DNA of 64,000 nucleotides, from positions 8,393 through 72,392 of the forward strand of contig JBIKIO010000001.1 of NCBI GenBank assembly GCA_044361555.1, written 5' to 3'. Of the stretch, positions 32,617 through 59,012 are shown in pieces (the first letter of the stretch is position 1; the number at the start of each line of letters is the position of its first letter). The notes beneath the pieces were generated by a model that saw only the letters and a program-made list of their open reading frames with translations, did not search any database and was not told where the DNA came from. The position numbers were made by a program, and so were the translations under genes. The stretch is from Opitutales bacterium (lineage in GTDB: Bacteria; Verrucomicrobiota; Verrucomicrobiia; Opitutales; UBA953).

Positions 32617-32619
32617 AGC

Positions 32620-37644: not shown

Positions 37645-37650
37645 GCACGC

Positions 37651-38157: not shown

Positions 38158-38277
38158 GGCGCTTTAATCTATGATTACATTGGGATATCAATATAAATAA
38201 CCCCATGGCAGCCGCTGGTCGAGGGTTGGCATGCAATTTACATTGATGGTGTCTGACGCTTACGCAGGCTCATCGAG

Positions 38278-39033: not shown

Positions 39034-39064
39034 ACCTCGGAGCAGGCTAAAGAGACGGTAAACC

Positions 39065-41185: not shown

Positions 41186-41218
41186 GCGCGAAATCAGCTT
41201 CGCTTGATGATTTCGCGC
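41186..41218. repeat. Perfect 11-bp inverted repeat spanning the SNF2 stop codon
   Basis: GCGCGAAATCA (41186-41196) and TGATTTCGCGC (41208-41218) are separated by 11 nt. The SNF2 stop (41196-41194) lies in one arm. No U-tract follows on the minus strand. Confidence 0.5.
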
Positions 41219-43362: not shown

Positions 43363-43440
43363 CTACTCTGCCCACCCGCCAGCCTCCCGCCAGCGCTAAC
43401 CTTAAAGGTAGGGATGCGATGAAATCGCATCCGTTGTCTC

Positions 43441-43473
43441 TAGGTAGGGATGACCGGCCCGGTCATCCTTAGG
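43441..43473. repeat. REP-like palindrome GGTAGGGATGACCGG-C-CCGGTCATCC, overlapping the stop of the phosphoesterase gene
   Basis: Arms GGATGACCGG (43448-43457) and CCGGTCATCC (43459-43468). The same element recurs at 62437-62457 and, with one mismatch, at 63426-63446. Confidence 0.7.
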
Positions 43474-44197
43474 CGCCCAGATCCCTCAGCAACTTCGTCT
43501 CCACGACCGGATCATGCCGGAGATGCTTGATGGTCCGGATGACTTCTTGGACATCGTAGTCGGTCCTCCGCAAAGTCACCTCGCGCGCTGACTGATCATA
43601 GGTAGCCCAGGAGGCCCGTTTGTCGTCCCCGCGAGGCAGACCCACGCTACCGACGTTGATGACCGTCTTGCGGCCCGCCTCGGGGCGATAGACCCCTGAC
43701 TTAGGACATGGTACGGGGTCTTCACTTCCCTCCGTCCAGATTTCCGGAACATGGGTATGTCCGACGAAGCATAGCGGAGCCTTCTGAGCGGCGAAGTGAG
43801 CCTTCAGCGCCCGAGGAGTCAGCAGGTAGTCGAAGACCGCATCGGGATTCAGGGAAGCATGAGCCAGCTCGATACCCTCAAACTGTCCGGTTGGGCGCCA
43901 CTTTGCGATCAGCTCGCGGTCCGCATGGTTCATTTTCTTACGGGTCCATTCGATCGCACCCCTGGCCGCATCATTGAACCATTGCTCGCCCAAGGCACCG
44001 ATCACGCCCGCTTCGTGATTCCCCTGCAGGCAGACCTCGGCCTTGGCGATCATCCGTAGGCAGTCATTCGGAAACGGCCCGTAGCCGATCACATCGCCCA
44101 GCACCAGCATCCGCTTCACGCCCAACGTCTCCATCTCCGCGAACACCGCCTCCAGCGCTGGACGGTTACCGTGGATGTCGGAAAGAATGGCGAACAC
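43469..44197 (-). CDS. Calcineurin-like metallophosphoesterase (YfcE/MPP type)
   Basis: FAILSDIHGN, LVLGDVIGYGP, LQGNHE, FVGHTHVP. GTG start at 44197. Confidence 0.85.
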   Translation of the reverse strand: MFAILSDIHGNRPALEAVFAEMETLGVKRMLVLGDVIGYGPFPNDCLRMIAKAEVCLQGNHEAGVIGALGEQWFNDAARGAIEWTRKKMNHADRELIAKWRPTGQFEGIELAHASLNPDAVFDYLLTPRALKAHFAAQKAPLCFVGHTHVPEIWTEGSEDPVPCPKSGVYRPEAGRKTVINVGSVGLPRGDDKRASWATYDQSAREVTLRRTDYDVQEVIRTIKHLRHDPVVETKLLRDLGA

Positions 44198-44277
44198 GGC
44201 GTGCAGGATGCATCCCTCCCGTGAGGCGACTCAATCTTAATTGGCTCAGCCAAGTTTGTAATTTTATTGTAAAAACA

Positions 44278-44889
44278 ATGAAGACCTTTGACGGATGGCC
44301 GACGATGGCCGAGCGTCGGCGAATGAGTTCGGACAATAACAACTGCGGCTGCATCATCATCCTGGCCGTCATCATCGGCGTCGGTAGCATCATCAGCAGC
44401 TGCAACGATAAGCATTCCTCGGCGCCCAAGGTCAGCCAACCCTCGACCGGCTATGTCGAGCCTGCTCCGAGCAGACAAGCCACCTCAAGGCCTACCGTAC
44501 CGACCGTGGCCGAACCATTCGGCCAGCTGCAGAGCGGCGGAGTCGTCGGGGCCAGCGCGGCCTTGAAAATGACCAACAACATGAGCAAGCCGGCTTACGT
44601 CAAAGTCTACGATTCGAACCGTAACCTCAGGGCGACCATCTACCTCCGGGCTAGCGAAAGCTACGAACTTGGGGTGCATCCGGACAGCTACCTGATCAAG
44701 TATGTCACCGGCCCGAGCTCCGAATGGAGAGGTACGACCCACTACTTCGGCTCCAGCTCGACCTTTCATGCGGACAAGGAAGCCACCTACATCGGTACGA
44801 ACCAGAGGCTGAGCGTCACGTTTTTCACCAGGGTGACCCGAGGTGGCTACAGCGGCAGCACCACTAAGATCGACGAGGAAGATTTCTAA
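44278..44889 (+). CDS. Hypothetical membrane-anchored or lipoprotein
   Basis: ATG at 44278 (the track start 44221 is a GTG). Hydrophobic segment CGCIIILAVIIGVGSIISSC ending in Cys, then a Ser/Thr/Pro linker and a beta-looking domain. The start is uncertain because there are two further in-frame ATGs. Confidence 0.55.
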   Translation: MKTFDGWPTMAERRRMSSDNNNCGCIIILAVIIGVGSIISSCNDKHSSAPKVSQPSTGYVEPAPSRQATSRPTVPTVAEPFGQLQSGGVVGASAALKMTNNMSKPAYVKVYDSNRNLRATIYLRASESYELGVHPDSYLIKYVTGPSSEWRGTTHYFGSSSTFHADKEATYIGTNQRLSVTFFTRVTRGGYSGSTTKIDEEDF

Positions 44890-44906
44890 AAAAACAGGGG
44901 TACTTT

Positions 44907-46310
44907 TCAGACGCCCTTAGAAGGATATTCATCCAACCAAGAATTGCCGCCGGCTTCGTCCGCGAAGACGCCTTCCAGCTGGGCCTCGAAGGCCGCATCC
45001 AGGATACGTTTGAAATCCTTACCAGGCTTCAAACCGCGGGCGACCAAGTGTCGGCCCTGCAGGATCGGCTTCGGCACGCCCTTATCCAGGTTCATGCCCT
45101 GCGCCTTGGCCAGCAGCCAGACGCCATGCTCGGTGGTGTCGCCGACGACCAGCGGCGGGCGGCCCTGACGGTCGGCTAGGTCTACGCGCAGCAGGCGATC
45201 GATACGCCCTACCCTCAGGGCCAGACGACGGACGGCATTGTCGCCCGACTGGGCGCGGAACAGCGCCGACGGCTTATCGTGATTGGCGACGTGCGGGACG
45301 ATCTCCTCGATCAGAGCCTGCTCGCGGGTCAGGCGACCCAGGAACTGACGGGCGATCGGGACGCCGGCCTCCTCGTGACCCAGCGCCCGCCAACGGCCTT
45401 CGGACATGACCGTGGTGACAGCCTTCCCCATGTCATGGCACAGGACGGCCAAGCCGACGACCAGGTCTTCGCGCGGATCGCCGATGTGCTTCTTCGCGAA
45501 AGCGTCGAGGCAATGCAGGGTGTGCGTCCAGACGCAGCCTTCCGGATGCCAGATCGGGTCCTGCGGGACGTCGACGATGGCGGCCAGTTCCGGGAAGTAC
45601 TGCAGCCAGCCGCATTCCCGCAGGAAGTTCAGTCCCAGCGACGGCTTACGGCCCTTCAGGATCAGCTTCGTCCATTCCTCGTACAGGCGCTCGGCCGGCA
45701 GGTCCTTCGGATGCAACGTCGCGCAAAGGGCGACCGTCTCCGGGGCAACCGTGAACTCGAAACGGGCGGCGAACTGCATGGCGCGCAGGACACGCAGCGG
45801 ATCTTCGGCGAACTTTTCGGAGACATGGCGGATCACGCCGGCCTGCAAGTCGCGCTCGCCGTGGTAGAAATCCAGCAGCTCGCCGTTCTCATCATTCCAA
45901 CCGATGGCGTTGATCGTGAAGTCACGTCGCTCCGCGGCTTCCTTCGGGGTCAGCGTTGAATCGACGAAGACCTCGAAATCGCGATGCCCTGCCCCGATGC
46001 GATTCTCGCGACGCGGGACCGAAACATCGACCGGCAGATCTTTCAGCTTGATGACGCCGAAGGCGGCGCCGACCGAGATGATCTCGAATCGTACGGACAG
46101 CGCCGTCTGGATCTGGGCCACGCTCAGGCCGAAGACCTCGATATCGAAATCCTTGGAGCCGATGCCCAGGAGCGCGTCACGGACGCAGCCGCCCATGAAG
46201 AACGGACGGCCGCCGGCGGCACGCAGGAGCGCCAGGACCTCATTGACCGGAGACAGTTCGCCCTCGAACTTCAGCAGTCCGGGACGGAATTGAGAGGTGT
46301 GGGCGTTCAT
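44907..46310 (-). CDS. cca: CCA-adding tRNA nucleotidyltransferase with HD domain
   Basis: FFMGGCVRDALLGIGSKDFDIEV (nucleotidyltransferase head), RRDFTINAI, HD motif LAVLCHDMGK. Confidence 0.85.
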   Translation of the reverse strand: MNAHTSQFRPGLLKFEGELSPVNEVLALLRAAGGRPFFMGGCVRDALLGIGSKDFDIEVFGLSVAQIQTALSVRFEIISVGAAFGVIKLKDLPVDVSVPRRENRIGAGHRDFEVFVDSTLTPKEAAERRDFTINAIGWNDENGELLDFYHGERDLQAGVIRHVSEKFAEDPLRVLRAMQFAARFEFTVAPETVALCATLHPKDLPAERLYEEWTKLILKGRKPSLGLNFLRECGWLQYFPELAAIVDVPQDPIWHPEGCVWTHTLHCLDAFAKKHIGDPREDLVVGLAVLCHDMGKAVTTVMSEGRWRALGHEEAGVPIARQFLGRLTREQALIEEIVPHVANHDKPSALFRAQSGDNAVRRLALRVGRIDRLLRVDLADRQGRPPLVVGDTTEHGVWLLAKAQGMNLDKGVPKPILQGRHLVARGLKPGKDFKRILDAAFEAQLEGVFADEAGGNSWLDEYPSKGV

Positions 46311-46479
46311 GGGATTTTGCCGTTAATCGGCCTTAATGGGTCATTTTCAGATAGAAACGCCGACGAGACCCCGATGTCAACATAATGTTAACACTTGTAA
46401 GTATCTATTTAACAGCGCTCTTCTTTTTAAGCCGCCCAACCCCTTGCTCCTGGGTCACCCAATACCCATACCTACGGAA

Positions 46480-48369
46480 ATGTCCGCTCCCGCTCTGTCC
46501 AAATCCCTCTTCAAGCTGGGGCTGACGTGTCCGATCAAGCTGAAGTACGCGCTGGCTCAGCCCGCGTTGCCGCGCCAGGCGGACGGGAACGATTATATGC
46601 AGCAGCTAGCGCGGGGCGGCTACATGTTCGAAAAGCTGGTGAAGGTCTATCACCCCGGAGAAGACATGTTCGTCGCGAAGGAGAGCCATACCGAGGCCTC
46701 CGCGAGGACGCTAGCCAAGATCAAGGCTGGCGATTGCACCCTGCACGAGGCGACCTTCGCGGTCGGCAGCCTGATGGCGCGTTGCGACATGGTCCGCGTG
46801 ACGGGCGGCACCCTCGACCTGATCGAGATCAAGTCTGCCTCCGTCGACGCAGAATCCAAGTTACAGGCCGACCCGAAGGAACTCCTGAAGAAGAGCTGGG
46901 AGCCTTACGTCGTCGACTTGGCCTACCAGGTGCACGTCGCCCGACAGGCCCTGCAGGCCGCCGGCATCAACAAGACCATCCGGGCCTGGTTCTATCTTCC
47001 CAACAAACTGGGAGTCGCCTCCCCGGAGGAGGTCCGCGGGCTCTTTACCCTCACCGAGAATGGCCCAGGAGGACGCCCGACGGTCGAGTACAAGGGCAAG
47101 GCCCGTCCAGGCGACGAAACGTCCCTGATCGCCATCCTGGAGGCCACGGAAGCCGTCTCCCAGGCCTACCCCGGCGAGGAATCCATCGCCGAGGCGACCG
47201 AGCGCATGACGGGGTATGTCGCCAGCGGCCACTGGCCGAATCCGGAGATCGGCATGAAGTGCAAGGCCTGCGAGTTCAACGTCCCGGGGCAGACTTCGGG
47301 CTACGACCTCTGCTGGGGCACCCAAGCCCGCGCCGAACACCACCTCTTCACGCTATGGCATCTGGGCAGCATGGAATACCGCCAGCCGGGAACCGTCCGT
47401 CGCATCGTCGAACTGACCGCGCCGCGGGCACCGCGCATCACTGACCTACAGGACGAGGACGTCGCCGGCGATGGCGAACTCCAGCGTGGCTGGAAACGTC
47501 AGATCATGGCCGTACGCACCGGACGTCCGTTCATCTCACCCGAAATCGTGCGGGATGCGGCGACCCTCCTGCGCTGCAAGCCGGAGAATTATCCGTTGTT
47601 CTTCCTGGATTACGAAGGCACGCGCTGCGCCCTGCCCTCTGCGCAGGGAAGTCGTCCATATGGGCAGGTCGCCTTCCAGTGGAGCTGCCACGTCATCGAT
47701 AACCCCGGCGCTTCGCCTCGGCATGTCGAATGGCTCGATACCGAGAACGACAACCCCAACCTAGGCTTCCTCGAATCCCTGCGCAAGCTGCTCGGCGAGC
47801 AAGGTACCATCTACCATTGGGCCGAGTACGAAGTCGTCGTCACCCAAGAACTCGCGAATGAGCTCCGCGGCGACGAATCCAAGGCCGACCTCGTCTCATG
47901 GGCGGATCGTAATTGGGGTACGAACGCCAAAGCCAAGAAGCTCGCCGTCAAGAGCGAGCGTTGCCTCGACCTGCTCGAGATCTCACGCGGGCATTTCTAC
48001 GACCAGGACATGAAGGGGAGCCATTCGATCAAGAAAGTCCTCCCCGTCGTCTGGAAGAACCCGGCTATCCAAAAACTCTTCCCAAAGTACGCCGTCGACC
48101 AGCACGGCCAGCCCGTGAAGAGCCCTTACGATGCCCTCCCCGCCCTCACCTTACAGGATCCTGCCCTCGGCAGCCTCGATCTCTCCCAGCTCGACGACCT
48201 CGACGTCGTCAAGAACGGGCCAGGCGCCATGCGGGCCTACGAGCACATCCGCTATGGCCTCGCCGCCGGCGACCAAGCTGCCCGCAAGTCCATGCGCCGC
48301 CAACTCATGCGCTATTGCGAACTGGATACCGCGGCCATGGTGATGGTGTGGAAGTATTGGTTAGGCTGA
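46480..48369 (+). CDS. DUF2779-like protein (Cas4/PD-(D/E)xK-type nuclease-like N-terminus with Cys cluster)
   Basis: The ATG at 46480 gives MSAPALSKSLFKLGLTCPIKLKY, which resembles the N-terminal signature I recall for DUF2779. Cys cluster KCKACEFNVPGQTSGYDLCWG. The family assignment is from memory only. Confidence 0.7.
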   Translation: MSAPALSKSLFKLGLTCPIKLKYALAQPALPRQADGNDYMQQLARGGYMFEKLVKVYHPGEDMFVAKESHTEASARTLAKIKAGDCTLHEATFAVGSLMARCDMVRVTGGTLDLIEIKSASVDAESKLQADPKELLKKSWEPYVVDLAYQVHVARQALQAAGINKTIRAWFYLPNKLGVASPEEVRGLFTLTENGPGGRPTVEYKGKARPGDETSLIAILEATEAVSQAYPGEESIAEATERMTGYVASGHWPNPEIGMKCKACEFNVPGQTSGYDLCWGTQARAEHHLFTLWHLGSMEYRQPGTVRRIVELTAPRAPRITDLQDEDVAGDGELQRGWKRQIMAVRTGRPFISPEIVRDAATLLRCKPENYPLFFLDYEGTRCALPSAQGSRPYGQVAFQWSCHVIDNPGASPRHVEWLDTENDNPNLGFLESLRKLLGEQGTIYHWAEYEVVVTQELANELRGDESKADLVSWADRNWGTNAKAKKLAVKSERCLDLLEISRGHFYDQDMKGSHSIKKVLPVVWKNPAIQKLFPKYAVDQHGQPVKSPYDALPALTLQDPALGSLDLSQLDDLDVVKNGPGAMRAYEHIRYGLAAGDQAARKSMRRQLMRYCELDTAAMVMVWKYWLG

Positions 48370-48626: not shown

Positions 48627-49391
48627 ATGAGGAACTATCTGATTATCGTCGCATTGCTGGTCGTCGCTGCGCTCGCCTTCCTGGCCGGCCTGAAATACGC
48701 CGCAGCCGACGGCCAAGGCGGCGAAGTCAGATCGATGGCCCTCATGTTCGTCGCGCTGGGAGGCTGCCTGCTCGGCTACCTTAAGTACGCGGAGATCGAA
48801 GACCAGAACACCGAGCTCATCAAGGCCGGAGGAAACCGTTCGTCCCCATTGCTCCTCACCGAAATCGGCGCGGTCAAAGATGAGCTGCTACGTCTCGGCA
48901 ACCGGGCCTCGGAACCCGCCGCAGACGCGGCGACGCCGCCTGCGTCTGGTGATTTCAACGGCGCCATCGCGGCCTTGGCCAAAGACCTCGGCCTCCGGGA
49001 GAAGGAAACCCAGCGCCTGCACGAGGTTCTCATCCGTCGCGATCATCGCAACGTATTGGCAAGGCTCGCGACCATACGTGAGACCGCCGAGTTCACCCGC
49101 AAGATCAACGCCGCCGGGAAGATCGCCGACAAGGAGGCCCTCAGCCAGGTGATCATGGAGATCGAAGCCGCCCTCGACGACCTCGGGCTCGAGATCATGC
49201 ACGTCTCCGCGGGTACGCGCATCGCCGACCTGCCCAACGGCAGCTTCTCGATCCTCAGCGCCACGCAGGCGGAAGCCGGCGAACAACCGGGCACCGTCAA
49301 AGAGGCGGTCACCGAAGCGGTCTTCGTGCGTGATGCGGATGGCAAGCAAGTCTTCATCGCGCCCGCCAAGCTCAGGGCTTACAAACTCTGA
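48627..49391 (+). CDS. Two-TM-anchored GrpE-like protein (copy 1)
   Basis: N-terminal helices LIIVALLVVAALAFLAGL and MALMFVALGGCLLGYL. A helical stalk. C-terminus ALDDLGLEIMHVSAGTRIADLPNGSFSILSATQAEAGEQPGTVKEAVTEAVFVRDADGKQVFIAPAKLRAYKL resembles the GrpE C-terminal dimerisation/beta domain. Confidence 0.7.
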   Translation: MRNYLIIVALLVVAALAFLAGLKYAAADGQGGEVRSMALMFVALGGCLLGYLKYAEIEDQNTELIKAGGNRSSPLLLTEIGAVKDELLRLGNRASEPAADAATPPASGDFNGAIAALAKDLGLREKETQRLHEVLIRRDHRNVLARLATIRETAEFTRKINAAGKIADKEALSQVIMEIEAALDDLGLEIMHVSAGTRIADLPNGSFSILSATQAEAGEQPGTVKEAVTEAVFVRDADGKQVFIAPAKLRAYKL

Positions 49392-49393
49392 AA

Positions 49394-50077
49394 ATGACCC
49401 GCTGGCTTGCCTCCCTCCTCTTCGGTGCGATCGGCCTGGGCTTGTCAGGCCTGCTCGGTTCCGAACTCGGCCTAAGCTCCGGAATCTGGATCTCCCTGGG
49501 ACTCGTGCTCTGGTGGGCCGCCGGACTATTCTTCAACGACACGAATCAGTTCGCCGAAGATGTCAGCGAGCCGGCGACCATCTCCCCGCGACAGGCTGAC
49601 CCCCGCCCTGCGGACCCGACGGTGCCGGACGACCAGTCGCTGCAAGCCGCCGTCATCGAACTGACCAAGCAGCTGCGCGGCAAGGAGGCCCTGATCGACA
49701 ACCTGCAGGTCAAACTCACCGAACGAGAGTTCCGCCGTAGCCTTTCCCGCCTCGCCAGCGTCAACGAGACCCTGTCCTTCACGCTCAAGCTCCTCCAAGA
49801 CGGCAACCTCACCCATGCGGCCGCCGTCGAACAGCTCCGCCAGGAAATCGAGTCCGCCGTTGGCGACCTCGGACTGGAGCATCACTCGATCCAGGTCGGC
49901 GCCGCCGTCTCCACGCTTCCGGCCGGCTCCTTCGTGATCCTCCGCTCCGAGACCGCGCCGACGCCGGAACTCGCCGGCACCGTCAAGGAAGTCGTCAATT
50001 CAGGCCTGTACGCCAAGGACGAAGCCGGCCGACCCCATTTCATCTCACCCTCCAAAATCAACGTCTACAAACTCTGA
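49394..50077 (+). CDS. Two-TM-anchored GrpE-like protein (copy 2)
   Basis: Paralog of 48627-49391. AVGDLGLEHHSIQVGAAVSTLPAGSFVILRSETAPTPELAGTVKEVVNSGLYAKDEAGRPHFISPSKINVYKL. The start lies 2 nt after the upstream stop. Confidence 0.7.
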   Translation: MTRWLASLLFGAIGLGLSGLLGSELGLSSGIWISLGLVLWWAAGLFFNDTNQFAEDVSEPATISPRQADPRPADPTVPDDQSLQAAVIELTKQLRGKEALIDNLQVKLTEREFRRSLSRLASVNETLSFTLKLLQDGNLTHAAAVEQLRQEIESAVGDLGLEHHSIQVGAAVSTLPAGSFVILRSETAPTPELAGTVKEVVNSGLYAKDEAGRPHFISPSKINVYKL

Positions 50078-50079
50078 CC

Positions 50080-51618
50080 ATGGCTAACATCATCGGCATC
50101 GACCTCGGCACCTCGACCACCCTGCTCGCCCACCTGAGCAATTCCGGCGAGGCCATCATCTACAAGAACAAGGACAACGAACTCCTCACCCATTCGGCCG
50201 TCTGGTTCGAAGGCGAACGCTCCGTCATCGTCGGGACCGAAGCCAAGAAGATGTTCGGCGTCGCCAAGGCAGACGAGATCTTCATCGAATTCAAGCGGGA
50301 CATGGGCGACGCCACCGTGGTCCATAAGATCCACGGCAAGGATTGGCATCCGCGCGATTTCAGCGCGCTCGTCCTCCGTCAGATCCGGGAGCATTTCGAA
50401 GCCAACAACGGTCCGGTCGATGCCGTGATCATCACGATCCCCGCCAACTTCTCCGACGAAGCCCGCGTCAACACGATCAACGCCGCCAAGGAAGCCGGCT
50501 TCAACCTAGGCAACGACGCGCTGGTCAACGAACCCACCGCGGCGGCGATCTACTACGCCAGCACCTCCCCCTCGAAACTCAAAGGCAAATACCTGATCTA
50601 CGATTTCGGCGGGGGCACGTTCGACGCCACCATCCTCGACGTCGATGGCGATGACATCAAGGTGCTCACCAGCATGGGCGTCCAGCGCCTCGGCGGCAAG
50701 GATCTCGATGAGAAGCTCATCGGGCTCATCGGCCAGAAATACACGAAGCTCATCGGTGGCGAATTCAAGGGCAAGGAGACGATGAGCGAGATCCAGCTCA
50801 CGCGCTGGGAGGTGGAGCAGGCCAAGCTGACCCTCTCCTCCCGCGAACGCGTGTCGGTCGCCATGAAGACGCAGGACCGCGGTATCGTCCGGGCCGAGAT
50901 CACGCGTAACGAATTCAACGAAGCCATCTCCACGCTGATCACCCAGGCCGAGCTGGCCGTCGACACGGCGCTCGACAACGCCAAGCTTGAGGCCAAGGAC
51001 CTGGCCGGCGTCTTCCTCGCCGGGGGCTCCACCCTCGTCCCCGCCGTCGCTCAAAGCGTGGAACGGCACCTGGGCATCAAACCCATCAGCCGCGACCCCG
51101 TCGGTTCCGTCGCGCTCGGCGCCTGCATGTACGCCGCGATCCGCAACAAAGCCAAACTCTCCGGAGCCCAGACGGTCGCCGTCGGCGCCAAGAAGGTGCA
51201 GGACGTCACCCCGCACTTCTTCGGCACGACCTACCGCGACCGGGCCTCCGGCAAGCTCATGGTCGACACTATCATCGCCAAGGACCGCCCGCTGCCGTGC
51301 ACCGAAAGCAAGAGCTTCTCCCGCGGCGTGAACCAAGGCGACAGCATCAAGATCCAGATCACCCAGTCTGGAAGCGAACAGAGCGACCCGGATTTCGTGG
51401 ACATCATCTGGACCGACCACCTCAAGGAGCTCCCCATCGTGACCGATGATACCGAGATCAAAGTCAGCTACACCTATGACACGAACGGCATCATGCAGTG
51501 CACGATCCTCGACATCCTTTCCGGGAAATCACTCAGCGTGACCCTAGATAAGAAAGCCTCGACCAGCGCCAAGAAGCCGGCTGGCGGCGTCAACATCAAG
51601 GATTACACCCTCGAGTAA
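50080..51618 (+). CDS. Non-canonical short Hsp70 (512 aa, no helical lid)
   Basis: IIGIDLGTSTT, ALVNEPTAAAIYYA, YLIYDFGGGTFDATIL, VFLAGGSTLVPAV. The protein ends shortly after a beta-rich substrate-binding-like region. Canonical DnaK is about 640 aa. The start context is TGACCATGG. Confidence 0.92.
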   Translation: MANIIGIDLGTSTTLLAHLSNSGEAIIYKNKDNELLTHSAVWFEGERSVIVGTEAKKMFGVAKADEIFIEFKRDMGDATVVHKIHGKDWHPRDFSALVLRQIREHFEANNGPVDAVIITIPANFSDEARVNTINAAKEAGFNLGNDALVNEPTAAAIYYASTSPSKLKGKYLIYDFGGGTFDATILDVDGDDIKVLTSMGVQRLGGKDLDEKLIGLIGQKYTKLIGGEFKGKETMSEIQLTRWEVEQAKLTLSSRERVSVAMKTQDRGIVRAEITRNEFNEAISTLITQAELAVDTALDNAKLEAKDLAGVFLAGGSTLVPAVAQSVERHLGIKPISRDPVGSVALGACMYAAIRNKAKLSGAQTVAVGAKKVQDVTPHFFGTTYRDRASGKLMVDTIIAKDRPLPCTESKSFSRGVNQGDSIKIQITQSGSEQSDPDFVDIIWTDHLKELPIVTDDTEIKVSYTYDTNGIMQCTILDILSGKSLSVTLDKKASTSAKKPAGGVNIKDYTLE

Positions 51619-51624
51619 GCCGCC

Positions 51625-52839
51625 ATGGAATTCGTCTGCGGCTTCTTCATCCTCATGGGCATCATCGGAGCAATCAAAGGCCTGTTCGCGGGCGACAGCT
51701 CCTCCGCCAGTTCCTCCGCCTCTACCCCCTCCTCCGGCGGCGGCTACGGCGGCGGACGAAGCGGGTCGAACATGGGTCGGTTCGAGATCCGGGCGGCACA
51801 GGTCATGCGAGGCACCAAGAAGGACCTGCGGGCGATCGCCATCGAAGGGCGGGGGCTGCTTCCGGTCAGCCGGAGGATGGAGATCCAGTTCGTGACCTGG
51901 GCGGAGGACATCACCGACGACTCCTCCGGCGAGCCGATCTTCTGCAGTCTTTCCAATTTTCAGCATCACGAACACCCGACCTATCAGAACGTCCAGGACG
52001 CCGGCGACCTTGCGCCGAACCAAGGCTTCACCGATTGGGTCGAACTCGGCGTGGCGCCCCTCGACGCGCTCACCTTCCCCCGGAGCGGCGCACGCAACAT
52101 CCGCTTCTACTGCTACATGGCCGAGAAGACTTCGCCCAGCCTGCGCAAGAGCCTGCTCGGAGACAGCTGCAACCTACGGCTGACCGTCGATGAGACCGGC
52201 TACAAGGAATGGAAGGAAAAGCGCGTGGAAGCCCTCACCCTCTCCCTCCGGCTGGGTATCGCCATGGCGCACGCCGACGGCGAATTCGCCCGCAGCGAAG
52301 CCGCCGCCATCAAGCACTGGCTCAAAGAACGCGTCGAGCTGCTGGATGACGCGGAGCAGGCCTCCGCCAAGGCCAAGCTCAACGCCGCGATGGCGGCCGC
52401 CGTGGCGGAAGCCGGCGCCCGCACCCTCAACGTGTCCTCCGCCACGGCCACCCTCCGCGCGTCCCCGGTCCGTAACGCGCCTTATGACGCCTTGGAGCTC
52501 TGCACCATCATCATGGCCGCCGACGGGGTCATCGACCCCGCGGAGATGCGCCTGCTGCGCGAGATTGGCGATAAGATGGGCATCCCGGCGCAACAGATCC
52601 AAGGTCTGACCGACAAGCACACGCCCGAGGCCACCACCGCGGGCGATGACGGCGAGCTGAGCGACGAGCTGCTCGTCGGGCTCGACCCGAAACTGCCTCC
52701 CGCCGAAGCCAAGCGTAAGCTGCGCGAGATCTTCGCCCGCTACAATAGCATGCTGACGACCGAGCGCGACGCCTTCAAGCGCCAGCGCTACCAGGACTGC
52801 ATCGACGCGGTCGCCCGCCTCCGCAAGAAATATGGATGA
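51625..52839 (+). CDS. TM-anchored TerB-domain protein with J-like C-terminal tail lacking HPD (DjlA-like layout)
   Basis: N-terminal helix FVCGFFILMGIIGAIKGLF. TerB-type pairs LGIAMAHADGEFARSEAAAIKHWL and IIMAADGVIDPAEMRLLREIGDKMGI. Tail LVGLDPKLPPAEAKRKLREIFARYNSMLTTERDAFKRQRYQDCIDAVARLRKKYG. Confidence 0.85.
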   Translation: MEFVCGFFILMGIIGAIKGLFAGDSSSASSSASTPSSGGGYGGGRSGSNMGRFEIRAAQVMRGTKKDLRAIAIEGRGLLPVSRRMEIQFVTWAEDITDDSSGEPIFCSLSNFQHHEHPTYQNVQDAGDLAPNQGFTDWVELGVAPLDALTFPRSGARNIRFYCYMAEKTSPSLRKSLLGDSCNLRLTVDETGYKEWKEKRVEALTLSLRLGIAMAHADGEFARSEAAAIKHWLKERVELLDDAEQASAKAKLNAAMAAAVAEAGARTLNVSSATATLRASPVRNAPYDALELCTIIMAADGVIDPAEMRLLREIGDKMGIPAQQIQGLTDKHTPEATTAGDDGELSDELLVGLDPKLPPAEAKRKLREIFARYNSMLTTERDAFKRQRYQDCIDAVARLRKKYG

Positions 52840-53971
52840 CGCTGCCGCCATGGTGAAGCTCTGCCGCGAGCGCCTCACCCCTTGCCTGTTCCGCCTCCCG
52901 TCGACCAGCCTGAGCAAGGAACTCTCCGTCACGGCGACGCCGCGGGACGGCTCCTACTCCTCGCACATGCTGCGGGTGACCGCGGAACTCACCCCCACGA
53001 TGGAGGATGCGGTGCAGCTCGCCTGCCATAACCTCGGTTTCCCCCGGGAGATCCTGGACGTCTACGTGCGACCGAAGAACGAGAACAACGCCTTCAGCAG
53101 CCTGGACGGCGGCCGGGCCAAGCTCATCTTCAATTCCTATCTCGTCGAGATCTCGGACCGTGACGAGCTCGCCTACGTCGTCGGCCATGAACTCGGCCAT
53201 TACCTCTTCCCGGAGGCCAACGTCCGGCAGCTGACCCCCAACCTGGAAGGCTGCATGATCTCGCGTTACAGCGAGTTCACGATGGACCGTATCGGCCTGA
53301 TCGCCTGCCGTAGCGTCGACAAGATGGTCTCGGCCGAGCTCAAAAGCCTGAGCGGACTTTCCAGCAAGCACCTGCGCATGGACGCCACCGCCATCATCGC
53401 GCAGTGGCGGGAAGCCTCCAAGGCGGCCGATACCACCTCGATATGGCTCCGCTCGACCCACCCGCCCACGGGCATGCGCGCCAAGGCGCTCATTCAGTTC
53501 TACGGGTCGGACGCCTACCGCGCCGCCATCGGCCAGTCCGGCGGCGAACCCATCGACCAGGTCAACGCCTCGCTGGGGACCGAACTTGACCGCCTCCTCG
53601 ACAATCACGCCCATCAGCTGATCGCCGAAAAACTGAACAAGCTGAGCGGCTGGCTTTGCGCCTTTGTCGCCTCCCGCGGCATCAAGCTGCGCCTGTCGAA
53701 CCTTCGCCATGGCCTCTGCTCGGCCCCCGACGAGATCATCAAGCGCTGCCTGAGCATCGTCATCGAGGAGACCCCTGAGCCCGAGCGCGAGAAAGTCAGC
53801 AACGAAAAACTGCTGCTCGCCCTGCAGGAAGCCTGCGAACTGGCCCCGGGACATACCCGAGTCTACCTGCAGTCGGTGGCGGCCACGAGTGATGAGATCA
53901 AGCCGCTGCTGCAGCAACTTGACGGACTGAGCCGGCAGCAAGGCATCATGATCGTCCCCCCGGCCGCCTGA
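52832..53971 (+). CDS. Soluble M48-like zinc metalloprotease
   Basis: HExxH in YVVGHELGHYLF, and the downstream M48-type WLRSTHPPTGMRAKAL. No TM helix is evident. Alternative start at ATG 52850 (context GCCGCCATGG). The ATG at 52832 overlaps the upstream stop by 8 nt. Confidence 0.8.
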   Translation: MDDAAAMVKLCRERLTPCLFRLPSTSLSKELSVTATPRDGSYSSHMLRVTAELTPTMEDAVQLACHNLGFPREILDVYVRPKNENNAFSSLDGGRAKLIFNSYLVEISDRDELAYVVGHELGHYLFPEANVRQLTPNLEGCMISRYSEFTMDRIGLIACRSVDKMVSAELKSLSGLSSKHLRMDATAIIAQWREASKAADTTSIWLRSTHPPTGMRAKALIQFYGSDAYRAAIGQSGGEPIDQVNASLGTELDRLLDNHAHQLIAEKLNKLSGWLCAFVASRGIKLRLSNLRHGLCSAPDEIIKRCLSIVIEETPEPEREKVSNEKLLLALQEACELAPGHTRVYLQSVAATSDEIKPLLQQLDGLSRQQGIMIVPPAA

Positions 53972-53984: not shown

Positions 53985-55316
53985 TCAGAGATAGCGCTGC
54001 CTCAGCTTGGCGATGGCTTCGAGCTGGCGCGTGATCATGGCTCGGTCAGCGGCATCCTTCGGGTGGCGGGAATTCCACTTCATGAACTGATCCAGCAGAT
54101 GGCGGCGGATGCGGCGGGTATCCCAGCCGAGGTCCAAGCCCACGAGCTCCGCGTATTCCTGGTCACGCCCCGCTCCCTCCCCTTCGTTCGCCGCATCGAT
54201 ATGACGATGCAGTTCCTCCAGTCCGAGGCTCAGCTCACGACACAGGCCCTTGAGTTCGGCCATGACCTCGGCGGAAACGGCGCAATCGACCCTGCCGACC
54301 TCGACGCAAAGAGCCAGCGCCTCCTGCGGCATGCCGGCGACTTCATAGGCCAGGAGTTCGCGACAGACCACCCCGAGGTCGGACCTCGCCCCCCTGGCCA
54401 TAGTCGCCGCCGCTTCCAGCGAGGCCTGGGTCTGCGCGACCAATCGGGCGTCTTCGCCTTTCAACTGATCAAGGTGCCGGCGCATCCATGCCTGGGCGGC
54501 GGGCCCTGCCTGCAGCGGTTCACGTCGCACGCGCGCCGCGAACGCATAGCCCAGGCATACGACCAACCCCGCCGCGTTCTGACGGGCGTAACGTTGCTCG
54601 ACGTAACCCTTGCGGACAAGCGTGACCTCGAACTGGGTCGTCGCCGCCGCCAGCATACCTGCGCGCAGGCGCTCATCGATGACGGTAAGCCCCGCCAAGG
54701 CGGCAGGGACTGCCACGCAACTGAGTCTTAGCGTGCGCTGCCCGGATTTCGGAGCCCGGATATTAGCGAAAGGGATGATGCCGACCGAAGTCCAGCCGGA
54801 GTCAGGCCGGCCCGGCGACGACACCTTGCCGAGAGTGCTCCGGACGACGAACTGGCCAGTCTGGTCATCCTGATACCTCTCCATCGTGGCATAGACCGGC
54901 TGGGATGATCCGTCGCTCACGTCCTCCATCGTCACGACCAGGTCGACGATCGTCTCTCCCATCACCTCGATGCCGCCGCTCACGTCGATCCGGAAACCCG
55001 GCTGCTCCTCCCCGGTCTTCTTATCGCGCAATTGGCAGGCTTCGGCCTGCAGGCGGAAGGGCTTGCTCGAGATTGGCGCGAAGCGGACTCCGGGGAAAGC
55101 TTCGCGAAAAACCTGCTCGGCGCTCTTCGCCGAAGGGGGCTTTGCCTGGGAAGCGGACGAGGGTGGCGGACGATGGTTGGTCCGAGGAGGCGGCGGGGGC
55201 GGCGTATCCTTTCGCGGCGGTGGCGCCGCTTCCGCCTTATCCTTACGCCACAGGTACAGATAGACGCCACCTCCGGCGAGGACCATGGCGGCGGCGATGT
55301 AGACGTAGGCGTTCAT
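53985..55316 (-). CDS. TM-anchored, Pro-rich paralog of 51625-52839 with J-like tail carrying HPKD
   Basis: N-terminal helix YVYIAAAMVLAGGGVYLYLW, then EAAPPPRKDTPPPPPPRTNHRPPPSS. The middle domain aligns by eye with 51625-52839 (VTMEDVSDGSSQPVY vs VTWAEDITDDSSGEPIF; PKSGQRTLRL vs PRSGARNIRF). Tail YAELVGLDLGWDTRRIRRHLLDQFMKWNSRHPKDAADRAMITRQLEAIAKLRQRYL. Confidence 0.8.
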   Translation of the reverse strand: MNAYVYIAAAMVLAGGGVYLYLWRKDKAEAAPPPRKDTPPPPPPRTNHRPPPSSASQAKPPSAKSAEQVFREAFPGVRFAPISSKPFRLQAEACQLRDKKTGEEQPGFRIDVSGGIEVMGETIVDLVVTMEDVSDGSSQPVYATMERYQDDQTGQFVVRSTLGKVSSPGRPDSGWTSVGIIPFANIRAPKSGQRTLRLSCVAVPAALAGLTVIDERLRAGMLAAATTQFEVTLVRKGYVEQRYARQNAAGLVVCLGYAFAARVRREPLQAGPAAQAWMRRHLDQLKGEDARLVAQTQASLEAAATMARGARSDLGVVCRELLAYEVAGMPQEALALCVEVGRVDCAVSAEVMAELKGLCRELSLGLEELHRHIDAANEGEGAGRDQEYAELVGLDLGWDTRRIRRHLLDQFMKWNSRHPKDAADRAMITRQLEAIAKLRQRYL

Positions 55317-55902: not shown

Positions 55903-56082
55903 TCAGAACAGCGCCTTGCAGCCCTTGATGACGAGGCCGAGGACGAACAGCACTCCCACGCCGACCAGGCATCCGCCGAGATAGTTACCCCAGCCGCCCG
56001 CCCGTTCCGCCTTGGCGTTGATCACGAAAAGGACGAAAGCGCCAGTCAACAGCATGCAGATCAATTGACCGGGGTCTTTCAT
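55903..56082 (-). CDS. Small two-TM membrane protein, 59 aa (below the ORF-track cutoff)
   Basis: Hand translation: MKDPGQLICMLLTGAFVLFVINAKAERAGGWGNYLGGCLVGVGVLFVLGLVIKGCKALF*. ATG at 56082-56080, TGA at 55905-55903, coupled to the next gene by TGACCATGG. Confidence 0.5.
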   Translation of the reverse strand: MKDPGQLICMLLTGAFVLFVINAKAERAGGWGNYLGGCLVGVGVLFVLGLVIKGCKALF

Positions 56083-56224
56083 GAATGAGGTGATAAGCGC
56101 GGCCGCGCGGGGGTCAACCTCGCCCGAACAGGCCGATGATTTTCACGAATTCTTTACAAAGGAAAGTAGTATACATTTGCGGCCGACCCGGACTTGCGAA
56201 GAATCCGCGACCTCCCCCACCCTG
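56083..56224. promoter_or_regulatory. Divergent intergenic region between the small-TM operon (minus) and Hsp70 module 2 (plus)
   Basis: A 142-nt gap containing a locally AT-rich stretch (gattttcacgaattctttacaaaggaaagtagtatacatttgc). No confident -35/-10 assignment. Confidence 0.3.
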
Positions 56225-56623
56225 ATGCGAGACTATAACGAATACTACGTCTTCCTGAACGCCACCCCCCAGAGCAGCCAGGCCGACATCGACCGGGCGT
56301 ACCAATCGGTGATCGGCGAAGCCCGGCGCCAAGGAGGGTTCATGCTGGACATCGTGGAAGAAGGCTACCGCTGCCTCTCGGATCCGACCACCCGCGCCCA
56401 ATATCATGCCGGCACCTACCGTCATGATATTCGCGTGAGCATGCTGCGCGAATCTCATGACCGCGAAGGCCGCACCGCCCAGTTCGACGCGTTTCCACGG
56501 CTCAAGAAGATCCAGTTCTACCAGTATATCTTCGACTCTGACGAAGTGAACGTGACCTTCGAGATGCTACCCAACGGGAAGTTCCGCAATACGAAGACCG
56601 GCGAGATCGTCGACCAACTCTGA
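56225..56623 (+). CDS. J-like domain protein lacking the HPD motif, 132 aa
   Basis: The ATG at 56225 gives MRDYNEYYVFLNATPQSSQADIDRAYQSVIGEARRQGGFMLDIVEEGYRCLSDPTTRAQYH. This follows the J-domain helix I-III pattern (YY.lLgv....s..eI..AY......HPD.....f..i.eAY.vLsD...R..Yd), with EARRQGG where HPD is expected. Confidence 0.6.
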   Translation: MRDYNEYYVFLNATPQSSQADIDRAYQSVIGEARRQGGFMLDIVEEGYRCLSDPTTRAQYHAGTYRHDIRVSMLRESHDREGRTAQFDAFPRLKKIQFYQYIFDSDEVNVTFEMLPNGKFRNTKTGEIVDQL

Positions 56624-56628
56624 CCGCC

Positions 56629-57087
56629 ATGGGTCTTTTCGACGCACTCTTCGGGCCTTCGGTCAAGGAACGGATGCTGCCCTATTTCCAAGGGCGTGGA
56701 AAACCGATGCATGAGCGGATCAGCCGCTGCGTCCGGGAGCTCTACCCCACCCTGGAGCTGAGTGACATCACTCCTTTCCATGAGGCCGGGAGCGAGCTGA
56801 CCGCTTCGGCCGACGGCTCGAACGAAGCACAGGCGATCTTCTCGGCCTGCGCCGCCCGGGCCGGCATGAAGGTCATCGCCATGACCATGCAGAAGGGCGC
56901 CGACCCTGACTGGCGCGTGATCATCAACAGCGAAAGCGTGGGTGTCTCCGCTCGGCCGTCCGATCTCCTGCAATTCGGCAAATACCGTAACGTCCGCACG
57001 CGCGTCCAGATCTGGATGTGCCTCCATGACGATGACACCCCGATGATGGACATTGTCACCGGCCCGGATTGGGAGAGACTTACCTGA
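56629..57087 (+). CDS. Hypothetical protein, 152 aa
   Basis: ATG in the context ACCGCCATGG, 5 nt after the upstream stop. Ordinary protein-like composition. No motif recognised. Confidence 0.6.
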   Translation: MGLFDALFGPSVKERMLPYFQGRGKPMHERISRCVRELYPTLELSDITPFHEAGSELTASADGSNEAQAIFSACAARAGMKVIAMTMQKGADPDWRVIINSESVGVSARPSDLLQFGKYRNVRTRVQIWMCLHDDDTPMMDIVTGPDWERLT

Positions 57088-57091
57088 CTCC

Positions 57092-57715
57092 ATGCGCGAC
57101 CCTGACTTCAATTACACCAAAGCCACGCTGAGCGAGCTCCAGACCCAGGCGGCCAAGCATGACGCCTATGCGATGAATGCGCTCGCCTGGCGTCTCGCGC
57201 ATGGCGAAGGCGTCGCCGTGGATGGCGCCGAATCCCGCCGGTGGTACGCCCGCTCGGCCGCCCTCGGCAACGCCGAGGGGCTTTACAACCTCGGGGTCTG
57301 CCATGTGAACGGCGACTTAGGAAAGATCGACCCTGTCGAAGCCTGTCGGCTTTGGCGATTGGCCGCGGCCAAGAACCACTACGCCGCGCTCGGTAATCTT
57401 GGGATTTCTTATTACTACGGGAACGGCGTACCCCAGGACTACGTGCAAGCCCGCGAATGGTTCCTCCGTTCGGCCAACACCGACGAACCTCGCGCCATGG
57501 GCATGATGGGGCAATTCTACCATCTCGCACGGGGCGTCCCCGAGGATAAGATCGAGGCGTTGGCGTGGTATCTTCTCGCCGCCGAAAAATCTGACGAGAC
57601 GGCCGTTCCGAGGACGAACCTCCTGAGGGAACTCACCGCGGCGCAGCAAGCCTCCGCCCGGACCCGCGCCGAAGTCCTGCGCCAGTCGATCAAGCATACG
57701 CCCTACCTCGACTGA
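57092..57715 (+). CDS. Sel1-repeat protein
   Basis: ATG at 57092, 4 nt after the upstream stop. Repeats such as AMNALAWRLAHGEGVAVDGAESRRWYARSAALGNAEGLYNLGVCHVNG. Confidence 0.85.
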   Translation: MRDPDFNYTKATLSELQTQAAKHDAYAMNALAWRLAHGEGVAVDGAESRRWYARSAALGNAEGLYNLGVCHVNGDLGKIDPVEACRLWRLAAAKNHYAALGNLGISYYYGNGVPQDYVQAREWFLRSANTDEPRAMGMMGQFYHLARGVPEDKIEALAWYLLAAEKSDETAVPRTNLLRELTAAQQASARTRAEVLRQSIKHTPYLD

Positions 57716-57723
57716 GCCTTCCC

Positions 57724-58416
57724 ATGGATTACTACTCCAAGATGGATGACAGCGCCGTCGAGGCCAAGGCCGCGGCCGGCGACCCTGTCGCCCAGACTCG
57801 GCTCGGCGTCCTCCATGCACGCGGCCAAGGCCGTCCGAAGGATTTCGCGCAGGCCCTCCATTGCTGGCAACTGGCGGCCGCCCAGGGGCACGCCGACGCG
57901 ATGTGCAATCTCGGCAACCTCTATGACCTGACCGACGATCACCCCCGTGATGACGTCGAAGCCGCCCGCTGGTATCGGGAGGCGGCCGAGCGCGGACATC
58001 TTAAGGCCCAGTTCAACCTAGGAATAAAATATTCCCACGGACAGGGGCTGGTTCGGGACATGGCCCAGGCCGCCCGCTGGTTCCGCGCCGCGGCGGACCA
58101 AGGCGACTCCATGGCGCAGTTCAACTTCGCGCTGCAATGCGTGCATGGGGAGGGCGTGCCGAAAGACGCCGGCCTCGCCGCCCGCTACCTCAAACTGGGC
58201 GCGGACCAAGGCGACGTCCAATGTCTGAACAGCTTGGCGATCCTCCATGCCACCGGCGACGGCGTCCCGCATGATCTCGTGCGGGCCTATGCGCTCTGGA
58301 CGGTCGCCATCCGCAACGGCGGCACCCAGTCGGAAGGCAACCTCCGCCACCTCACCACCACCATGACCCCGCGCCAGATCGAATTGGGCGAACAAGCCGC
58401 CGCGCAGATCCGCTGA
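57724..58416 (+). CDS. Sel1-repeat protein
   Basis: Repeats: AQTRLGVLHARGQGRPKDFAQALHCWQLAAAQGHADAMCNLGNLY; AARWYREAAERGHLKAQFNLGIKYSHGQG; and further units. Confidence 0.9.
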   Translation: MDYYSKMDDSAVEAKAAAGDPVAQTRLGVLHARGQGRPKDFAQALHCWQLAAAQGHADAMCNLGNLYDLTDDHPRDDVEAARWYREAAERGHLKAQFNLGIKYSHGQGLVRDMAQAARWFRAAADQGDSMAQFNFALQCVHGEGVPKDAGLAARYLKLGADQGDVQCLNSLAILHATGDGVPHDLVRAYALWTVAIRNGGTQSEGNLRHLTTTMTPRQIELGEQAAAQIR

Positions 58417-58420
58417 TCCT

Positions 58421-59002
58421 ATGACGCACCCGCTCATCGATCTCTTCGCTATGCCGACGCTTCCCATGGCGTTCTCGAGCGTGATCCGTAACCTCCCCGT
58501 CCCCTTCACCCGCAAACTCACCAAGCGACCCAAGAACGGCTGCCTGCTCGCCAACGATGAGTTCTACGTCGTATTCGAAACCTACCCGCTGGCCGTCAAG
58601 CAGATGACCCAGATGATCGGCGAGCAGCAGATCGACCCGATCCCCGTCGAGTACCTTTACGCCGCGTCCGTCTTCTATCGTAAATCGCGTAATCCGCACG
58701 GCCCTTCCTCCCGCCCGATCTACGTCTTCTGCCTAGAATACACCGAGTTCACCTGCGATATGAGATCCCGCGGACTCTGGGATACGCTGACCGGCAAGCC
58801 CAAGCATCCCGCCGAAGTCTTCTCCGCCGTCTTCTTCGCCGACGGGCGCACCAACCATGGCAAAGTGCCGAACGACTTCACGGATGCCTCGGCGCGCGAA
58901 TACCTCATGCTCGGCGTATGTGAGCGGCTAGGCCTGACGCGCGGCGACTTCCGGGAGATCGGCCCGCTGTCGCTCGGAGCCGACTGCCCCGAAGTCGCGT
59001 AA
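58421..59002 (+). CDS. Hypothetical protein; paralog of the C-terminal domain of 61278-62105
   Basis: Shared blocks, first from this gene then from 61278-62105: DEFYVVFE vs DDFYVIVE; SVFYRKSRNPHGPSSRPIYVFCLEYT vs SCFYRESRSPHPRARRHPIAIFTLEHS; GLWDTLTG vs GFFDRLLG. Confidence 0.7.
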   Translation: MTHPLIDLFAMPTLPMAFSSVIRNLPVPFTRKLTKRPKNGCLLANDEFYVVFETYPLAVKQMTQMIGEQQIDPIPVEYLYAASVFYRKSRNPHGPSSRPIYVFCLEYTEFTCDMRSRGLWDTLTGKPKHPAEVFSAVFFADGRTNHGKVPNDFTDASAREYLMLGVCERLGLTRGDFREIGPLSLGADCPEVA

Positions 59003-59012
59003 GACTCCGGAT

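Follow-up and report, generated by a model that had tools for sequence, protein, structure and literature searches.

The 64,000-nucleotide stretch of Opitutales bacterium DNA analyzed here (the window) carries, at positions 48627-53971, an operon-like array of five tightly packed genes on the + strand that encodes a membrane-tethered Hsp70 system. The conserved core of this operon consists of four genes, i.e., those for a GrpE-type factor with two transmembrane (TM) segments, an Hsp70 without the helical lid, a single-pass membrane adaptor with a TerB domain, and a soluble M48-type zinc metalloprotease. The identity of the system, in the sense of this parts list, is near certain. The operon is widespread in uncultured bacteria, where it is accessory and sporadic, and it is apparently undescribed to date; no NCBIfam or PADLOC model was found for it, and no description in the literature searched. 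As to its function, we give about an even chance to an accessory, membrane-docked Hsp70 machine that captures and cleaves polypeptides, probably in the course of conflict or envelope stress.

Components of the operon

The open reading frames (ORFs) coincide exactly with those of a preliminary description of this DNA, which had presented five co-directional genes joined by gaps of 2 to 6 nt or by an overlap; in order, the first four genes are separated by 2, 2 and 6 nt, and the adaptor and M48 genes overlap by 8 nt (coordinates in Table 1). Because the GC content at third codon positions of the five genes (0.80-0.87) fits the 60% GC of the window, and because each of the five products has conserved homologues, the array represents real genes and not chance ORFs. 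By hydropathy, two hydrophobic segments are present in each GrpE-like protein, in agreement with the two TM helices previously noted at the start of both, one is present at the N-terminus of the TerB protein, and none is present in the Hsp70 or the M48 protein.

The Hsp70 matches Pfam HSP70 (PF00012) at E = 1e-64 over profile positions 1-505 of 599, and, when it is aligned with E. coli DnaK and with DnaK proteins of solved structure, the match covers a complete nucleotide-binding domain (NBD), the linker, and the beta part of the substrate-binding domain (SBD-beta). The alignment to DnaK runs to about residue 504 and the protein ends about 20 residues later, the helical lid being absent; the Hsp70s of the family are all 494-538 aa long, i.e., lidless. 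The window protein retains D8, T11, K70, E171, D194 and T199 (DnaK numbering), as do 60/60 family members. Thus, the earlier reading of a 512-aa Hsp70 with intact ATPase motifs and no lid holds, and the protein appears, as judged from its sequence, to be catalytically competent.

In DnaK, Arg167 pairs with the aspartate of the J-domain His-Pro-Asp (HPD) motif and, together with the hydrophobic VLLL linker, receives the J-domain HPD signal, as established by DnaK genetics and the DnaK-DnaJ structure. Arginine is found at this position in none of the 60 family members (Ala in the window protein; Tyr, Phe, His or Asn elsewhere), while E. coli DnaK, HscA and HscC all retain it, and the VLLL linker is replaced by KKVQ in the window Hsp70 and by [ILV]-K-V-[SAT] across the family. 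The C-terminal tail is also conserved, reading NIKDYTLE in the window protein and I-[DE]-[KR]-F-x-V-E in its marine relatives. As a side observation, these last eight residues bring to mind the EEVD tail through which eukaryotic Hsp70 docks.

The Hsp70 is annotated as 'molecular chaperone DnaK' in the source records, which would be in line with the array being the housekeeping dnaK-grpE-dnaJ locus. However, its NCBIfam equivalog scores fall below the cut-offs for both DnaK (221 bits vs. 822.55) and HscA (208 vs. 708.55), it is only 27-28% identical to each of E. coli DnaK, HscA and HscC (BLASTP; about 27-34% for DnaK more broadly) vs. 35-60% within the operon family, it has no lid, and no J protein with an HPD motif is encoded in the window. 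A housekeeping locus was rejected on these equivalog scores and on architecture, and the non-housekeeping, membrane-tethered Hsp70 module that had been proposed from the sequence is upheld.

The two GrpE-like proteins are paralogues of each other (36% identity over 165 aa, E = 1e-30), and the hydrophobic segments of paralogue 1 lie at residues 4-22 and 34-52. No GrpE match was obtained for either protein in Pfam, NCBIfam, PHROGs, PADLOC, PDB phmmer or PDB profile searches; hence the GrpE-like label given to them previously stands by fold and by a transitive Pfam link, but not by a direct profile match. Specifically, the AlphaFold2 (AF2) model of paralogue 2, with a predicted local distance difference test score (pLDDT) of 79.5 overall and >90 for residues 90-227 (most of the folded part), comprises TM segments at 5-23 and 29-47, a disordered linker, helices at 80-135 (56 residues) and 141-158, and a beta domain at 162-225. 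When this model was compared with the PDB by Foldseek, the top five matches were all GrpE or GrpEL1 (E = 2.5e-5 to 2e-3), including T. thermophilus GrpE (3a6m, 2.5e-5), human GrpEL1, and E. coli GrpE bound to DnaK, and the next match had E >1. The ORFs found upstream of the Hsp70 gene in marine relatives of the operon (described below) align in turn with the window GrpE-like family (hhalign 97.4% over 149 columns, E = 1.4e-11), and Pfam GrpE (PF01025) matches 13/40 of these marine orthologues directly, with a best value of 3e-8 and a full-length match in L066 (225-379). Since the fold matches are all GrpE, and since this chain leads from the window proteins through the marine orthologues to Pfam GrpE, we regard the GrpE homology of the two-TM proteins as established to the extent that a predicted fold and transitive sequence evidence allow. 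The predicted role would be that of a GrpE-type dimer that speeds nucleotide release from the Hsp70 NBD. The loop between the two TM segments varies from a few residues in the window proteins to about 300 residues (L091 5128-6357, L093 1476-3134, L035 627-1982), and a LysM domain sits between TM1 and TM2 in one GrpE-like orthologue, which would put the loop on the outer side of the cytoplasmic membrane and the GrpE domain in the cell interior. The exchange factor may thus carry a periplasmic sensor module that differs among relatives.

The adaptor matches Pfam TerB (PF05099) at residues 210-326 (4e-11; 43.5 bits vs. a gathering score of 24.4). Its AF2 model (pLDDT 82) shows a TM segment at 3-21, a Ser-rich disordered linker, a beta-sandwich at 54-188, the TerB domain at about 196-332, and a C-terminal short helix plus two-helix hairpin (346-403) in which helix II extends beyond the HPD position. 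Foldseek matched the adaptor to 2h5n (TerB-like) with probability 1.0 and gave weak C2/Ig-type sandwich matches; no J domain was returned for the whole adaptor. The hairpin has the family motif F-x-[KR]-[WY]-N and a conserved pattern of L-L-G-I-D...F-x-K-W-N-x-R...A-Q-x-M-L...A-R-K-K-Y.

The preliminary description had assigned to this protein the layout of DjlA, that is, a TM segment, a TerB domain and J-like C-terminal helices, although without the HPD tripeptide. The TM segment, the TerB domain and the lack of HPD are confirmed, with HPD present in 0/141 representatives of the adaptor family and no J-type HPD anywhere in the window, but the J-like, DjlA-type assignment is not. None of 13 C-terminal segments, including the last 67 residues of the adaptor, has a J-domain match in Pfam, the best PDB-profile J-domain match of the adaptor C-terminus is weak (E about 0.7), and the DjlA model (NCBIfam NF006948) gives a score of 17.5 vs. 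a cut-off of 162. The hhalign comparison of the hairpin with the J domain, for which the reference was a 10-sequence alignment made in part of E. coli and L003 records, reached 65% with 13 sequences and 43% with 142 sequences, over helices I-II only and with RYN opposite KYH. Because HPD is missing, the profiles are subthreshold, and the Hsp70 has lost Arg167 and had its VLLL linker replaced, we did not file the adaptor as a J-domain protein, nor did we accept it as a relative of DjlA. Should the hairpin derive from a J domain after all, then both partners, hairpin and Hsp70, have lost their half of the HPD-Arg167 switch.

The last gene had been described as encoding an M48 protease with HExxH and THPP motifs and no TM helices, and this description is correct. 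The protein matches Peptidase_M48 (PF01435) at E = 1e-10 (41.9 bits vs. a gathering cut-off of 20.3), the HELGH, SRxxEFxxDRxG and THPP motifs are all present, and H119, E120, H123, E148, D152, H210 and P211 are invariant in 18 diverse relatives, so that, at the level of sequence, the protease is likewise predicted to be catalytically competent. Hydropathy revealed no TM segment in the window protein or in 61/63 family members. The weak PDB-profile matches of the M48 protein are almost all HtpX, Ste24 and BepA; its HtpX equivalog scores are 14-19 bits vs. cut-offs of 275-422, and it does not have the multiple TM segments of HtpX and Ste24. Remote relatives in other phyla (e.g., Vicinamibacteria) are single-protein fusions of Peptidase_M48 and TerB, 399-498 aa in length (P0286-P0303; L095-L098), some of which also score for DUF533. 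Such domain fusion argues for a functional partnership of protease and TerB domain, to which the Hsp70-GrpE pair would have been added. The fusions were also considered as a compact form of the whole system and discarded as such, since no Hsp70 gene lies near them and their neighbors are ordinary metabolic genes.

Conservation and distribution of the operon

Word-indexed searches returned 64-89 clusters per component, all of them metagenomic or from metagenome-assembled genomes (MAGs) and annotated as hypothetical. When the adaptor alignment was run in an exhaustive profile search against representatives of 50%-identity clusters, 1,020 representatives were recovered at E <=1e-3 and 357 at E <=1e-30, nearly all about 400 aa long and matched over their full length. 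With a close-family probe, 2/185,579 genomes of the species-genome collection were matched, both of them Opitutae (Verrucomicrobiota) MAGs, and one marine cluster maps to a protein of a Bacteroidetes Order II MAG. The family comes nearly entirely from uncultured marine and freshwater bacteria, which may explain why it has escaped notice.

Conservation of the neighborhood, a check suggested in the preliminary description, was found in other sequences, metagenome loci included. Contigs at 39-92% identity retain the unit, and a distant set (L001/L002) has one GrpE-like gene instead of two and a different neighborhood. A metagenome scan with a 12-sequence alignment of marine-subfamily adaptors yielded 80 loci (locus GC 0.34-0.59), whose ORFs were called and then searched with hidden Markov models built from the window family; the denominators given next derive from this search. 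The order [2TM-GrpE]-Hsp70-TerB-M48 is nearly invariant among these loci: the Hsp70 gene lies directly upstream of the adaptor gene in 56/57 loci, the M48 gene lies directly downstream of it in 50/53 (the three exceptions being a tandem adaptor duplication, a rearranged order and one true absence), and a related two-TM GrpE-like ORF precedes the Hsp70 gene in 39/46, a count that was higher in a looser check. No further neighbor family recurs around the marine operons.

Consequently, the core is not the five-gene unit that had been envisaged. Paralogue 1 of the GrpE-like proteins is present in loci L003-L007 and L011-L014 and absent from L001/L002 and the marine loci; it is a lineage-specific duplicate. 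The adaptor also has a paralogue, encoded convergently next to the M48 gene, which shares 25% identity with it over 327 aa (BLASTP, E = 3e-21), has no Pfam match, and ends in the same hairpin (KWNSRHPKD...RQRYL), with HPKD in place of HPD. Orthologues of this paralogue occur in L003, L006 and P0311/P0426 and are absent from L001 and most marine loci, and it is thus a lineage-specific accessory outside the conserved core. Therefore, the lineage of the window carries two copies of the exchange-factor gene and two of the adaptor gene.

No relatives of the GrpE-like and TerB proteins were found in IMG/VR (two alignments), GenBank phages or PLSDB plasmids (tblastn), and in these phage and plasmid searches the Hsp70 matched ordinary DnaK only (<=31% identity). 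An origin from phages or plasmids was rejected because of the lack of GrpE-like and TerB relatives there. Some phages do encode DnaK-like proteins, so that a phage chaperone set for virion assembly might be imagined; against this stand the same searches, the absence of tRNAs from the window, and the scan of window ORFs, in which no structural genes of phages were seen. Such a chaperone set and the housekeeping locus discussed above are effectively refuted, with next to no probability left for the two together.

A possible capture-and-cleave mechanism and its rivals

The preliminary description had ventured a triage or signaling machine, a reasonable inference, to which the genomic context adds a hint of conflict or defense that had not been proposed there. 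The mechanism to which we give about even odds can be outlined as follows. The adaptor and a GrpE-like dimer would be embedded in the inner membrane, their folded domains facing the cytoplasm, and would jointly hold the Hsp70 at the membrane face. The beta-sandwich and TerB domain of the adaptor might sense a membrane or ligand cue or bind the client, and its C-terminal hairpin might dock the Hsp70 without the canonical HPD-Arg167 contact. The ATP-competent, lidless Hsp70 would then grip and unfold a membrane-proximal polypeptide and be reset by the tethered GrpE-like factor, and the M48 protease, which has no unfoldase of its own, would cut the substrate held by the Hsp70. In other words, the operon may encode a split, ATP-dependent 'capture and cleave' protease.

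The genomic surroundings bear on what such a machine might be used for. The flanks of the marine operons are mutually unrelated, and among 110 neighbor proteins there are four phage-type integrases, two resolvases, three HNH nucleases, McrBC and DNA methylases, as well as PADLOC matches to Drt6 (1e-151), Drt4 (3e-113), ShosA (3e-66), several PDC candidates, and parts of type I/II/IV restriction-modification systems. Because these variable flanks are rich in integrases and known anti-phage genes, the use is probably in conflict with phages or mobile elements, or under the envelope stress that results from them; the conflict-type genes in the window itself (see below) point the same way. A more specific version, which we put forward only tentatively, is an Hsp70-based immune or conflict system independent of J domains, in which the Hsp70 would sense foreign or membrane-inserting (e.g., phage) proteins, the GrpE-like and TerB proteins would set the trigger, and the M48 protease would destroy the invading protein or a host target. 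A precedent for the capture-and-cleave reading is provided by the lidless DnaK-like domains reported to be fused to protease-effector defense modules (PMC12642450).

Several points weigh against both the mechanism and its use in conflict. The mechanism is inferred throughout from parts and neighborhood, with the interactions, the client, the topology and the protease target all being predicted. The association with defense genes and mobile elements is an unnormalized neighbor count, i.e., guilt by association; the five proteins gave no meaningful match to PADLOC-DB 2.0 (marginal matches only, to PDC-S48 at 0.0015 in the TerB domain and to capP at 0.011 in the HExxH region), and no toxin-like effector is encoded in the operon. 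Further, the loop that has been called the GrpE signature of DnaK (PMC8215388) is five residues shorter in the window Hsp70, and thus the interface between exchange factor and Hsp70 cannot be assumed to be canonical. With the linker altered and Arg167 missing, allosteric coupling, and hence true unfolding activity, could also be weak.

Alternatively, the operon may serve in the quality control of membrane proteins, or against envelope stress unrelated to phages. Under this hypothesis, the tethered Hsp70 would extract or hold damaged inner-membrane proteins and the M48 protease would degrade them. The system would then correspond to FtsH/HtpX, but with a soluble protease, and TerB would sense metal or membrane stress. 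The M48 relatives HtpX, Oma1 and BepA are quality-control proteases, and HtpX, Ste24 and BepA are the PDB-profile matches noted above. The window also encodes PspC and GYF_2 proteins of membrane-stress type, the M48+TerB fusions stand among ordinary metabolic genes, and TerB and DjlA have been tied to envelope stress signaling (PMC11709261). However, the rarity of the operon in species genomes with the close-family probe and its occurrence in unrelated contexts with integrases and defense genes are unusual for core quality control, and we consider this explanation rather unlikely.

Another alternative is a signaling switch based on regulated proteolysis, in which the adaptor (or its paralogue) would itself be the M48 substrate, Hsp70 binding would gate the cleavage, and the output would be a released fragment or an altered membrane state, similar to the activation of the Rcs relay by DjlA-DnaK. 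The long disordered juxtamembrane linker of the adaptor is an exposed, cleavage-prone segment, strongly conserved motifs that would suit docking are present in both the Hsp70 tail and the adaptor hairpin, and DjlA offers a precedent (PMC11709261). Nonetheless, the operon is not accompanied by any conserved output component such as a transcription factor or kinase, and cleavage of the adaptor is only postulated; such a switch therefore appears improbable.

The capture-and-cleave machine that we favor has no exact counterpart among the known systems to which we compared it. DnaK, HscA and HscC are the textbook bacterial Hsp70s. Similar to DnaK-DnaJ-GrpE, the operon combines an Hsp70 that has a complete ATPase site and SBD-beta with a GrpE-fold factor encoded adjacent to it. 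In contrast to that universal system, the operon is accessory and sporadic, its Hsp70 has no lid, has lost Arg167 and has an altered linker, the exchange factor is anchored by two TM segments, there is no HPD partner, and a protease is part of the operon. The adaptor resembles DjlA in its single N-terminal TM segment, cytoplasmic TerB domain and short C-terminal helical module, and both would presumably recruit an Hsp70 to the membrane; it differs from DjlA in the additional beta-sandwich before TerB, the missing HPD, the DjlA score far below the cut-off, and a partner that is a dedicated Hsp70 rather than DnaK. HscC-DjlB/DjlC-YbeT and HscA-HscB are likewise specialized, non-housekeeping Hsp70s with dedicated partners encoded alongside, but they keep a shortened lid, Arg167 and HPD-bearing J proteins, whereas the operon has an exchange factor and no HPD partner. 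For HscA and HscC, an exchange factor is probably dispensable (PMC8215388).

The mitochondrial presequence translocase motor (mtHsp70, Mge1, Pam18, Pam16, Tim44) offers an analogy only: in outline it resembles the proposed machine, since anchored partners keep an Hsp70 at the inner side of a membrane, a GrpE-type factor takes part, and Pam16 is J-like but has no HPD; however, its tethering parts are not homologous to those of the operon, Mge1 is soluble, the motor has no protease, and the operon has no translocon. FtsH and HtpX share with the operon, as proposed here, the energy-dependent handling of membrane-proximal substrates combined with a zinc-dependent HExxH peptidase, HtpX being itself a member of M48. 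The operon differs in that ATPase (Hsp70) and peptidase (M48) are split between two proteins, the peptidase is soluble, and the ATPase is an Hsp70 and not an AAA+ ring. Finally, the EACC1-protease modules with lidless DnaK-like domains (PMC12642450) also combine a lidless DnaK-like unit with a protease in a defense-type setting, but they are fusions to cysteine-protease or pore-forming effectors, their DnaK-like domain is about 50% identical to DnaK, and they have no GrpE-like, TerB or M48 component. Taken together, the operon would work most like a cross of DjlA-DnaK, the HscA/HscC systems and FtsH/HtpX; it is a member of none of these, because the DnaK, HscA, DjlA and HtpX thresholds are all failed and the J-domain hallmark is absent.

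While DnaK derivatives other than the known ones have been called unexplored (PMC13580251), the operon is a concrete member of this group that comes with a fixed parts list. It represents a specialized Hsp70 with its own exchange factor, in which the HPD-Arg167 switch has apparently been dispensed with and which appears wired to the membrane on two sides and coupled to a protease. If the proposed mechanism is true, it would amount to a new design of ATP-dependent protease, built from an Hsp70 and an M48 peptidase, and it could constitute a new class of phage defense or envelope surveillance.

Neighboring genes and a second Hsp70-derivative block

The rest of the window is rich in conflict-type genes, namely, a ternary-type MoxR, a kinase-PP2C-vWA row, a microbial PARG, an SNF2 protein, a Cas4-like DUF2779 protein and a CCA-adding/HD protein (Table 1). 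The MoxR gene is flanked by three co-directional genes (916, 496 and 390 aa) without a Pfam match, and the region as a whole is likely a ternary conflict system. The kinase and PP2C genes stand in a row with four vWA-domain proteins, a layout that may resemble the TerY-phosphorylation triad. The CCA-adding/HD and DUF2779 genes are also found upstream of the operon in L003-L005, at 48% identity. As a side observation, the region at 29627-39889 is a cluster of membrane-stress or ADP-ribose-related genes.

Table 1. Coordinates of the operon and of other features of the window.
Feature	Positions	Strand	Description
Stop-free frame	1-9839	-	At least 3,279 codons, runs off window start; no Pfam match at E <=0.001
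Likely ternary conflict system	10117-16637	-	Region containing the MoxR gene
MoxR AAA+ ATPase	14360-15472	-	MoxR-vWA-beta-propeller ternary type (bpMoxR, 4e-50)
Kinase/PP2C/vWA row	17500-26266	-	Includes four vWA-domain proteins
Protein kinase	17500-19008	-	
PP2C phosphatase	19011-21209	-	
GYF_2/PARG cluster	29627-39889		Four GYF_2 proteins (one fused to PspC), PDZ protein, 575-aa Sel1-repeat protein, microbial-type PARG (3e-44)
Genes just upstream of operon	41194-48369		SNF2 helicase, calcineurin-like phosphoesterase, CCA-adding/HD nucleotidyltransferase, DUF2779 PD-(D/E)XK (Cas4-like) nuclease
GrpE-like paralogue 1	48627-49391	+	254 aa; two N-terminal TM, linker, long helix, C-terminal beta domain
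GrpE-like paralogue 2	49394-50077	+	227 aa; TM hairpin, linker, helices, beta domain (AF2)
Lidless Hsp70	50080-51618	+	512 aa; complete NBD, altered linker, SBD-beta, short tail
TerB adaptor, membrane-anchored	51625-52839	+	404 aa; Pfam TerB, one TM
M48-type zinc metalloprotease, soluble	52832-53971	+	379 aa; Pfam Peptidase_M48, conserved C-terminal helical domain
Adaptor paralogue	53985-55316	-	443 aa, convergent; N-terminal TM, Pro-rich linker, beta-sandwich, degenerate TerB region
Second Hsp70-derivative block	56081-60491	+	Probably related to the operon; outside the main finding
J-like protein without HPD	56081-56623	+	180 aa; Pfam DnaJ 0.0015; hhalign 62% over 57 columns
Two Sel1-repeat proteins	57053-58416	+	Pfam Sel1
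152-aa ORF and 193-aa ORF	within 56081-60491	+	
Degenerate Hsp70 paralogue (Hsp70b)	59013-60491	+	35% identical to module Hsp70, E 4e-82

Downstream of the operon lies a second block of Hsp70 derivatives, which is conserved in L003, L006 and L011-L014. In the J-like protein that opens this block, residues 52-108 resemble a J domain in which the HPD loop is replaced (YYVFLNATPQSSQADIDRAYQSV...GYRCLSDPTTRAQY). In Hsp70b, IGIGLGV, DETTAAA and YRMAKSTFD take the place of the ATPase motifs, and Asp8, Asp194 and the glycine loop are lost; judging from these replacements, the protein is probably an ATPase-dead 'pseudo-Hsp70'. A comparable arrangement is seen in L001 (1977-4940), where the first member of a tandem Hsp70-like pair keeps NEPTAAA and DxGGGTFD and the second is without them. 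Thus, these organisms hold several Hsp70-derivative modules side by side. Finally, the E. coli hscC locus combines HscC, DjlB, DjlC and the Sel1 protein YbeT, and the second block likewise pairs Sel1 proteins with a J-like protein.

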